From assembly GCA_951406725.2 (NCBI GenBank), contig OX597831.1:69626001-69690000 (forward strand): a stretch of 64,000 nucleotides of DNA. Reading direction: 5' to 3'. Source of the stretch: Octopus vulgaris. Taxonomy: Eukaryota. The notes below the pieces were generated by a model. It had not been told where the DNA came from. It did no database searches and was given only the letters and a program-made list of their open reading frames with translations. The translations under genes and the position numbers were made by a program. How positions within the stretch are numbered: position 1 is the stretch's first letter; every line of letters starts with the position of its first letter. Positions 60,416 through 60,802 of this stretch are shown here, in pieces.

Positions 60416-60802
60416 AGGGGTCAGCCATATTTAAATGGCAAATATACGTCACGATGTGTTGCAGCTACGGTTTAAAACTCACTCTAAGATTTATTATTGC
60501 TTGTTTACATGTTTTCGATATCAGAGTCTTTACAATACTGGAAAAGGGATAAGTATTTGTGAAGGGAACCTACTTTTCATCGACAACTGTGATTGTCACA
60601 CGCCGATGACGGGTCAATATCCAGAAACTCGAGTCCGTATGTATCATAAGTTGGAGACGGGAAGGATGGCTTCTCTTCGCAAATACTGATAGGGCACAGA
60701 AAGTGTGTCTATAGCCAACTGGAGGAGGTGTCCTCCTGGGGCTACAAACTACAGTAGCATCCATCCTTAGGGGTTAGCCATATTTAAATGGCAAATATAC
60801 GT
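60416..60802 (+). mobile_element. Retrozyme-like unit: 353-bp monomer with 34-bp terminal direct repeat and an internal hammerhead
   Basis: aggggt(c/t)agccatatttaaatggcaaatatacgt at 60416-60449 and 60769-60802; extensive self-complementarity; HHR at 60597-60642. Confidence 0.72.
60597..60642 (+). ncRNA. Type I hammerhead ribozyme motif (core variant CCGAUGA)
   Basis: acg-CCGATGA-cggg tcaata tcca-GAAA-ctcgag-TC-cgt; helix I extends (gtgat/atcat, caact/agttg); GUC cleavage triplet. Confidence 0.7.

Follow-up and report, generated by a model that had tools for sequence, protein, structure and literature searches.

A 353-nt retrozyme-like repeat family with Penelope-type insertion ends in the genome of Octopus vulgaris

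Among the described systems, those closest to the repeat analysed here are the metazoan non-LTR retrozymes of PMC7229834, low-GC units of about 350 nt (350-390 bp in Mytilus, Rtz_353 in axolotl). According to the available part of that source, each unit carries one type I hammerhead with a short palindromic helix III, the units occur as dimers to multimers and are predicted to form a self-paired circle, and Penelope-like elements (PLEs) are present in the same genomes; circles were demonstrated for the coral, mussel and axolotl retrozymes (PMC7229834). Mobilisation of animal retrozymes by PLEs has been proposed via co-occurrence and homology, and the mechanism is still open according to the portion of a 2026 preprint available to us (10.64898/2026.07.22.740005). 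Insertions of Penelope-like elements are truncated at the 5' end, have a second truncated copy next to them in inverted orientation, and often carry, at one end only, a tail of 30-40 bp (PMC8557442). For a purified PLE protein, this tail was bounded by two internal start sites of reverse transcription located in an AC-rich stem-loop, and the protein cut AT-rich DNA before cDNA start (PMC11167929).

The window, a stretch of 64,000 nucleotides of O. vulgaris DNA, contains one copy of a repeat that shares with the retrozymes of PMC7229834 the short low-GC unit (150-450 bp class), here tandem and multicopy, the single type I hammerhead, the short palindromic helix III, the multimers, the self-paired predicted circle and the presence of PLEs in the genome. 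It is likely a retrozyme-like non-autonomous element, for which self-cleavage and circularity are predicted.

Layout of the window copy and its repeat family

Unit positions are counted from 60416 of the stretch (position 1), and the features of the window copy are collected in Table 1. The direct repeat of 34 nt described in the sequence-only reading was recovered with one mismatch (97% identity) and a spacing of 353, so that the insertion holds 1.1 units. It had been taken for a terminal redundancy, which is not a fixed property of the family: the overlap varies in length between copies and contains no hammerhead, the 3' end of the window insertion is the family end-site I (unit position 34), and its 5' end is a chance truncation. 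Given the end pattern of the family arms, the window copy represents one arm, begun at site I and broken off 387 nt upstream of it, and its 34 bp are the remainder after one full turn of the unit. No TSD was found at this copy, as had been noted before, and there is no sign of a host role.

Table 1. Coordinates of the features of the window copy (positions of the whole stretch)
Feature	Positions	Strand	Remarks
Insertion	60416..60802	+	387 bp, 1.1 units; 5' end is the truncation point
One 353-nt unit	60416..60768	+	4.8% from own subfamily majority
34-bp overlap, copy 1	60416..60449	+	
34-bp overlap, copy 2, ends at 3' junction	60769..60802	+	
Predicted hairpin, unit positions 9-24	60424..60439	+	One compensatory change between subfamilies (13-20, C-G to U-A)
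84-aa ATG open frame, judged incidental	60435..60689	+	
End-site I, predicted hairpin with CACG loop, unit positions 29-44	60444..60459	+	
5' strand of predicted 8-bp helix with 60751-60758	60464..60471	+	Closes end-site I domain
End-site II, unit positions 79-100, peak 82-84	60494..60515	+	
Predicted long rod, hammerhead at tip	60549..60691	+	Compensatory paths at 145-264, 146-263
Type I hammerhead fold	60584..60653	+	Core CCGAUGA (U4C)
Core CCGAUGA	60603-60609	+	Read from sequence
Stem II, C-A at base	60610-60623	+	Read from sequence
GAAA	60624-60627	+	Read from sequence
Palindrome ACUCGAGU, helix III	60627-60634	+	Read from sequence
Predicted self-cleavage site after GUC, unit position 220/221	60635..60636	+	
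Two further predicted hairpins, unit positions 281-299 and 301-328	60696..60743	+	

The unit is non-coding and has no RT plus GIY-YIG reading frame. The earlier remark that it lacks a convincing ORF holds in that no gene is conserved, and has to be amended in that an ATG frame of 84 aa, the longest in the unit, exists. No Pfam match was found for this frame, and with an open reading in two of five subfamily majorities and in 13 of 39 natural copies it is not a conserved gene. Eight other frames or pieces of the window were uninformative; five of them were scanned, with 0 Pfam matches. Elsewhere in the window, a region at 61230-61480 on the minus strand, about 450 bases from the insertion, looks by eye like a short coding exon ending in a stop; if so, the element would lie antisense in a 3' region. 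The window also has a 2.8-kb (AT)n run (45146-47965), a tandem of 42-43/85-nt units (8630-8897) and a (CTA)87 run (50704-50965).

That the element is a multicopy family was seen directly in the 2.8-Gb assembly (227 contigs), where a 20-mer of the unit had 1,593 exact matches and its reversed control had none; from 3,581 first-look candidates 40 were scored, the best of them at 91-95% identity. Tandem multimers, predicted by the sequence-only reading together with the many copies, also exist, as arrays of about five (L061) and about nine units (L161) with a period of 353/352 nt. The five units of the first array (L061:4053-5821) have variants common to units 1 and 3 and to units 2 and 4, a pattern that could stem from duplication of a dimer or from copying a dimeric template twice round. 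Because units share variants in repeating patterns, the arrays are not clean evidence of rolling reverse transcription, and we dropped them as proof of rolling copying; duplication in place accounts for at least part of the long arrays.

In four runs presumed to be RNA, the contigs cover the element and not its flanks, and they contain both C and T at 60604 as well as one joint back 353, all of which tandem DNA copies would give as well, so that we do not count it as evidence of expression. At 60660-60790 of the window, past the predicted cleavage site, the depth of these contigs, which give no levels, is several times that found before the site, and loose contig ends resemble more divergent relatives; the difference may reflect short 5'-truncated copies or a related family.

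The 106 arms of at least 250 nt were placed in a tree (FastTree, midpoint root, no clade test), and all except five were assigned to subfamilies. The five subfamily majorities are separated by as many as 50 differences in 353 positions and form a ladder with near-additive distances of 20, 16, 11 and 11: A0 (CUG, C-A), A (CCG, C-A; the window copy), D (CCG, C-U), C (CCG, U-U) and B (CUG, U-U). Internal divergence is highest in A0 (5.5%; 2.1-3.3% in the others), which suggests that it is the oldest subfamily, root and ages being soft with loci picked by similarity or exact motifs.

The predicted hammerhead and its U4C variant

All elements of the type I hammerhead put forward by the sequence-only reading are readable in the window copy, and the fold is conserved in other copies; the topology (stems I-III, GAAA, UH) is also present in all nine cores of the L161 array. 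Cleavage is predicted after C60635 (GUC). Stem I closes at G60602-C60636 and carries a UGU/U internal loop, and stem II consists of 3 bp above the C-A mismatch with a UCAAUA loop. Within a monomer, helix III could close a loop of 2 nt only, and the self-duplex of the palindrome has -10.7 kcal/mol; such a palindromic short helix III works in dimers (PMC4209133). The window copy has a private lesion in stem I, an A at 60639, a position occupied by G in 28 of 29 close copies. The Rfam search that had been proposed yielded 0 hammerhead matches at E<=10 on 60400-60820, with none there in a second Rfam search, and the minimum-energy fold of the monomer is a different pairing from the hammerhead.

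As a whole, the unit is predicted to be strongly folded (-105 kcal/mol, z -2.9), with none of 100 shuffles as good, and the long rod described earlier was found, with arms at 60549-60568 and 60671-60690. Circular folding, also suggested before, gave z of -5.9 to -7.9 for the five subfamily majorities (40 shuffles each) and -3.1 for the window copy. The proposed pairing of the two ends was recovered in part: 60464-60471 is predicted to pair with 60751-60758, as a helix that becomes local when the unit is circular or multimeric; the predicted fold lacks the gatg/catc pairing.

Over 19 distinct copies the hammerhead stems are 91% paired, against 23-43% when slid. A standard pair at 10.1-11.1 is missing in 18 of 19 aligned copies, and among 20 aligned copies from across the subfamilies no variation was seen in helix III or at the remaining core positions, a result inflated by the picking of loci by core pattern. 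Covariation of the stems was directly observed: while C4 was present, a G-C pair of stem II became A-U in five of 19 copies (one event), and the rod pairs 145-264 and 146-263 changed via wobble steps. Structural constraint is evident from the kind of change more than from its place, since 33 of the 53 variable columns belong to pairs of the A fold, which matches the proportion for the whole unit (65%), and one subfamily or more has lost the pairing at 10 of 27 affected pairs.

The sequence-only reading expected a CUGAUGA consensus and took U4C and the C-A mismatch of the window copy as possible marks of an inactive copy. The subfamily of this copy does not have that consensus, as 28 of the 29 closest copies carry C4, the majority of them with the C-A mismatch; both are subfamily traits and not decay, and U4C as decay of the window copy was rejected because it is subfamily-wide. 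The core is CCGAUGA in three of five subfamilies and CUGAUGA in two, and among 464 exact core patterns of the genome 284 are CCG (CCGAUGA) and 180 CTG (CUGAUGA). The converse possibility, that CUG copies arose by CpG decay of CCG copies, was rejected given that the mirror product CCA was found 12 times against 180 for CTG. Since A0 (CUG) seems to be the oldest subfamily, U4C would have been gained after A0, kept through three successive subfamilies with their covarying stems and then lost, an order that depends on the soft root. Two loci, L189 and L190 (G000:C7:119.07 Mb and C10:83.70 Mb), have a rare fully canonical hammerhead with CUGAUGA and a G-C closing a 4-bp stem II.

U4C is dominant in two unrelated hammerhead families of this genome, one of them a young intact PLE. 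For the minimal hammerhead of the PLE family with a 775-aa frame there are 1,728 pattern matches; among the first 100 listed, counted by eye, 70 were CCG, nearly all identical, and 30 were CTG and more varied, and an older relative (L125) has CTG. A third hammerhead-like repeat (L126:170-270; L162-L167) has a CCGACGA or CCGAUGA core inside a near-perfect inverted repeat of ~29 bp and a 3-bp stem II; its 23 exact pattern matches comprise, by eye, 19 CCG and 4 CTG. U4C lowers hammerhead activity considerably in vitro, yet it supports a viroid in vivo, and the best tolerated mismatch at 10.1-11.1 is U-U (PMC3088659). The sequences are compatible with U4C as a brake under selection, as a neutral change or as a step on the way to loss. 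As a brake, slow cleavage would keep circles or multimers intact as templates, and U4C would have arisen in the 353-nt family, in the youngest autonomous PLE copies and in the third family.

Insertion ends and the Penelope-like elements of the same genome

The insertions were analysed as 172 distinct arms at 118 loci, after removal of duplicates and of arms touching the locus edge. Two fixed 3' ends were directly observed: 98 of the 172 arms end at 31-45, 59 at 79-100 and 15 elsewhere, and the two intervals amount to 10.5% of the unit. The sequence-only reading had proposed permuted copying beyond unit length; copies longer than one unit do occur (56/172 arms, a number inflated by the first query), but copying is not freely permuted, as 157 of 172 arms end at the two sites. 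Because alignments tend to extend for a few bases into the AT-rich targets, the true sites are placed near 34-40 and 79-87, about 43 nt apart. Two queries favoured arms reaching position 34, and the count was repeated on loci chosen by the hammerhead only, which are blind to ends; there, 83 of 90 arms ended in the two intervals. The 5' ends are scattered over all 18 bins. In 39 of 50 head-to-head insertion pairs each site is used by one arm, in 11 one arm ends elsewhere, and in none is the same site used twice (P ~1.5e-13 for 39/39 under independence).

The targets are AT-rich, with 84% AT in the 20 bases past the 3' ends against 64% in the background. (TA)4+ directly follows the 3' end in 52 of 172 arms, and (TA)n targets account for 29/129 arms in A0 and A and for 23/43 in D, C and B. 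A regular TSD is absent among the 66 single-arm insertions; TSD-like matches of at least 7 nt, mostly (TA)n, were found in 15 of them, against 10% of shuffled pairings, and about four (L002, L006, L025 and L079) are plausible duplications of 9-12 bp.

We infer that end-sites I and II are the first and second start sites of reverse transcription, the stretch between them being an optional 'tail'. The combination of two-site ends, scattered 5' ends and paired asymmetry is the PLE 'tail' footprint and suggests PLE-type pasting; thus the earlier proposal of PLE mobilisation is supported by the two-site ends, the inverted pairs and the AT-rich targets.

Regarding the template, no arm out of 172 has its 3' end at 215-225 and one has its 5' end at 217-225, and among arms picked by their 3' end 10 of 36 cross the predicted cleavage site. 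Because no arm ends at this site, the template would be a circle or an uncleaved multimer, and a linear self-cleaved monomer, whose ends would lie at 220/221, was excluded. The circle is not singled out because an uncleaved tandem transcript leaves equal footprints. Within the PLE-retrozyme model we give a circular template and an uncleaved tandem transcript even weight, and both may be used; the anole PLE works from uncut RNA (PMC11167929).

A GIY-YIG search of the genome gave 148 scored matches from 6,136 candidates, and the 30 loci examined formed 10 clusters. Two PLE families have intact RT + GIY-YIG frames, of 781 and 775 aa, preceded in both by a first frame of ~450-480 aa. Both have two 3' ends ~40-45 nt apart and insert almost only in (TA)n, and in the 775-aa family three inverted pairs use one end-site each. 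The latter, a young family (L174:1627-5222 and 5898-9493, at G000:C1:27.84 Mb; L175; L156), has a tandem unit of 4,271 bp, frames of 454 and 775 aa, a minimal hammerhead with a CCGAAGA core and a Cx4CxxC linker, which is a mark of Neptune (PMC8557442). The other young family (L152:430-5740; L153-L155) has many intact 781-aa frames, a first frame of ~480 aa and a terminal repeat whose hammerhead-like motif has the core UUGAUAA (U3-A8 type); the 3' ends of this family lie 40 nt apart in (TA)n.

None of the 10 GIY-YIG clusters (30 of 148 loci) has a 3' region that resembles the start domain of the 353-nt unit in sequence, and therefore the PLE partner is inferred as a kind and not as an individual family. 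Pieces of 38-41 nt found by BLAST (E 0.003-0.02) were rejected as pointers to the partner, as they lie inside or at the end of PLE frames and not at termini, and a likeness by eye to the ends of the 781-aa family was no better than 30 shuffles.

Competing explanations and comparison with known systems

We consider it probable that the family is a non-LTR retrozyme moved by a PLE with RT and GIY-YIG, and the window copy a 5'-truncated member of it. Tandem copies would be transcribed, and their hammerheads would pair via the palindromic helix III and cut slowly, more slowly with U4C; monomers may be ligated to circles. The PLE protein would bind the structured domain ~170-215 nt downstream of the cleavage site and nick AT-rich DNA, with cDNA beginning internally at either of the sites ~43 nt apart, and inverted insertions would use one start site per DNA strand. 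Reverse transcription would pass the hammerhead junction and fall off at random, which for the window copy would mean a start near position 34-40, one round plus 34 nt, and a stop. Counted against this explanation are that only 52 of 172 arms lie at (TA)n, unlike the near-exclusive (TA)n of the two PLE families, the lack of an Rfam match and of a partner, the unpaired 10.1-11.1 in 18 of 19 copies and the other fold of the monomer, as well as the failure of eight of nine predicted retrozyme dimers of Xenopus to cleave in vitro (10.64898/2026.07.22.740005). An extended form, in which a circular ribozyme RNA parasite has its own PLE start site and two-site internal priming round the circle, and U4C is a repeatedly selected brake, is a tentative proposal that we regard as rather unlikely.

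The same insertion ends could be left by a passenger of PLEs, non-autonomous and with a hammerhead that survives as a dead relic, with long uncut array RNA, an internal start and no circle, the fold being kept because the PLE protein binds it. This would agree with the considerable loss of in vitro activity caused by U4C (PMC3088659), with CCG in 284 of 464 exact core matches and no Rfam match, with the fact that no arm starts at the predicted cleavage site, and with the anole PLE, which uses mainly uncut RNA as substrate and in which mutating the ribozyme leaves insertion at the wild-type level (PMC11167929). However, 20 copies show no change in helix III or at the other core positions (inflated, these being core-pattern loci), canonical CUGAUGA persists at subfamily level and a G-C closing pair in few copies, an axolotl retrozyme with U-U at the stem II base still cleaves (PMC7229834), and U4C still supports a viroid in vivo (PMC3088659). 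We regard this reading as improbable. The copies could instead be orphan pLTRs of an autonomous PLE, either 5'-truncated ends of a coding element or a recently derived satellite, given that their end anatomy is that of PLEs, that Xenopus retrozymes are related to pLTRs (10.64898/2026.07.22.740005) and that the GIY-YIG matches examined were 30 of 148. Nevertheless, upstream of position 1 the arms run into position 353, for up to nine units (flanks partly screened for coding), 56 of 172 arms are longer than a unit (a share raised by the first query), and there is no alignment to a PLE terminus above shuffles, which makes this origin very improbable. We give hardly any credence to an origin at the DNA level, with the 34 bp as a long TSD or the copies as satellite fragments spread by recombination: duplication in place is visible in the arrays, but recombination would not be expected to produce polar ends or paired asymmetry, covariation is at the RNA level, and the long-TSD alternative considered earlier is refuted since the 34-mer belongs to the element in other copies, being part of the unit in all those examined.

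The kind of element is already known. In the literature on cephalopod hammerhead, Penelope or retrozyme sequences, on U4C and on tail priming we found no description of the 353-nt family, of a two-site PLE footprint on a retrozyme or of a family-wide U4C, although supplements or repeat databases may list some of these. The family offers genomic evidence on how such non-autonomous elements move, as it combines a PLE two-start-site footprint on a retrozyme-like unit, at named positions, with intact candidate enzymes in the same genome; thus, the published in vitro PLE assay can discriminate between circle and linear multimer as template. The recurring U4C raises the testable question of selection for slow ribozymes, and most hammerheads of this family (284/464) would escape a descriptor search that requires CUGANGA.

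The plant LTR retrozyme, with a type III hammerhead in its LTRs, PBS/PPT and a 4-bp TSD, is not matched by this family, whose hammerhead has type I topology. With the EN+ PLEs (Poseidon PAc, PMC11167929; Neptune/Naiad, PMC8557442) it shares, as far as the available parts of these sources go, two internal 3' ends bounding a tail, an inverted 5'-truncated partner, AT-rich or (TA)n targets without a regular TSD, a hammerhead upstream of the 3' ends and a template not cut at the ribozyme. It differs from them in having no RT or endonuclease, a tail of ~43 nt instead of 30-40 and a full hammerhead with a long stem I instead of a minimal one, and it has no sequence likeness to the PLE ends sampled in this genome. 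As in the Xenopus retrozymes, for which PLE mobilisation has been proposed, there are monomers, dimers and multimers; the Xenopus case was built on co-occurrence and pLTR homology, the latter not found for the 353-nt family, and makes no mention of 'tail' or 'initiation', whereas ours is built on insertion ends (10.64898/2026.07.22.740005, available part).

Compared with the retrozymes of PMC7229834, likened here by description, the weak base of stem II has a counterpart in HHR_Amex2 of axolotl. In contrast, CCGAUGA in three of five subfamilies with C-A or C-U closing stem II sets this family apart, as do its copies, most of them dispersed insertions that are truncated or inverted and end 3' at two fixed sites, a pattern not described in the available text of that source; cleavage and circles were demonstrated there, whereas the 353-nt family is known from its sequence. 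Finally, the core change is identical to that of a natural U4C hammerhead of a viroid (cited in PMC3088659), which is a rare variant in that setting, whereas in the octopus U4C is the majority state of whole genomic subfamilies and occurs in three unrelated families.
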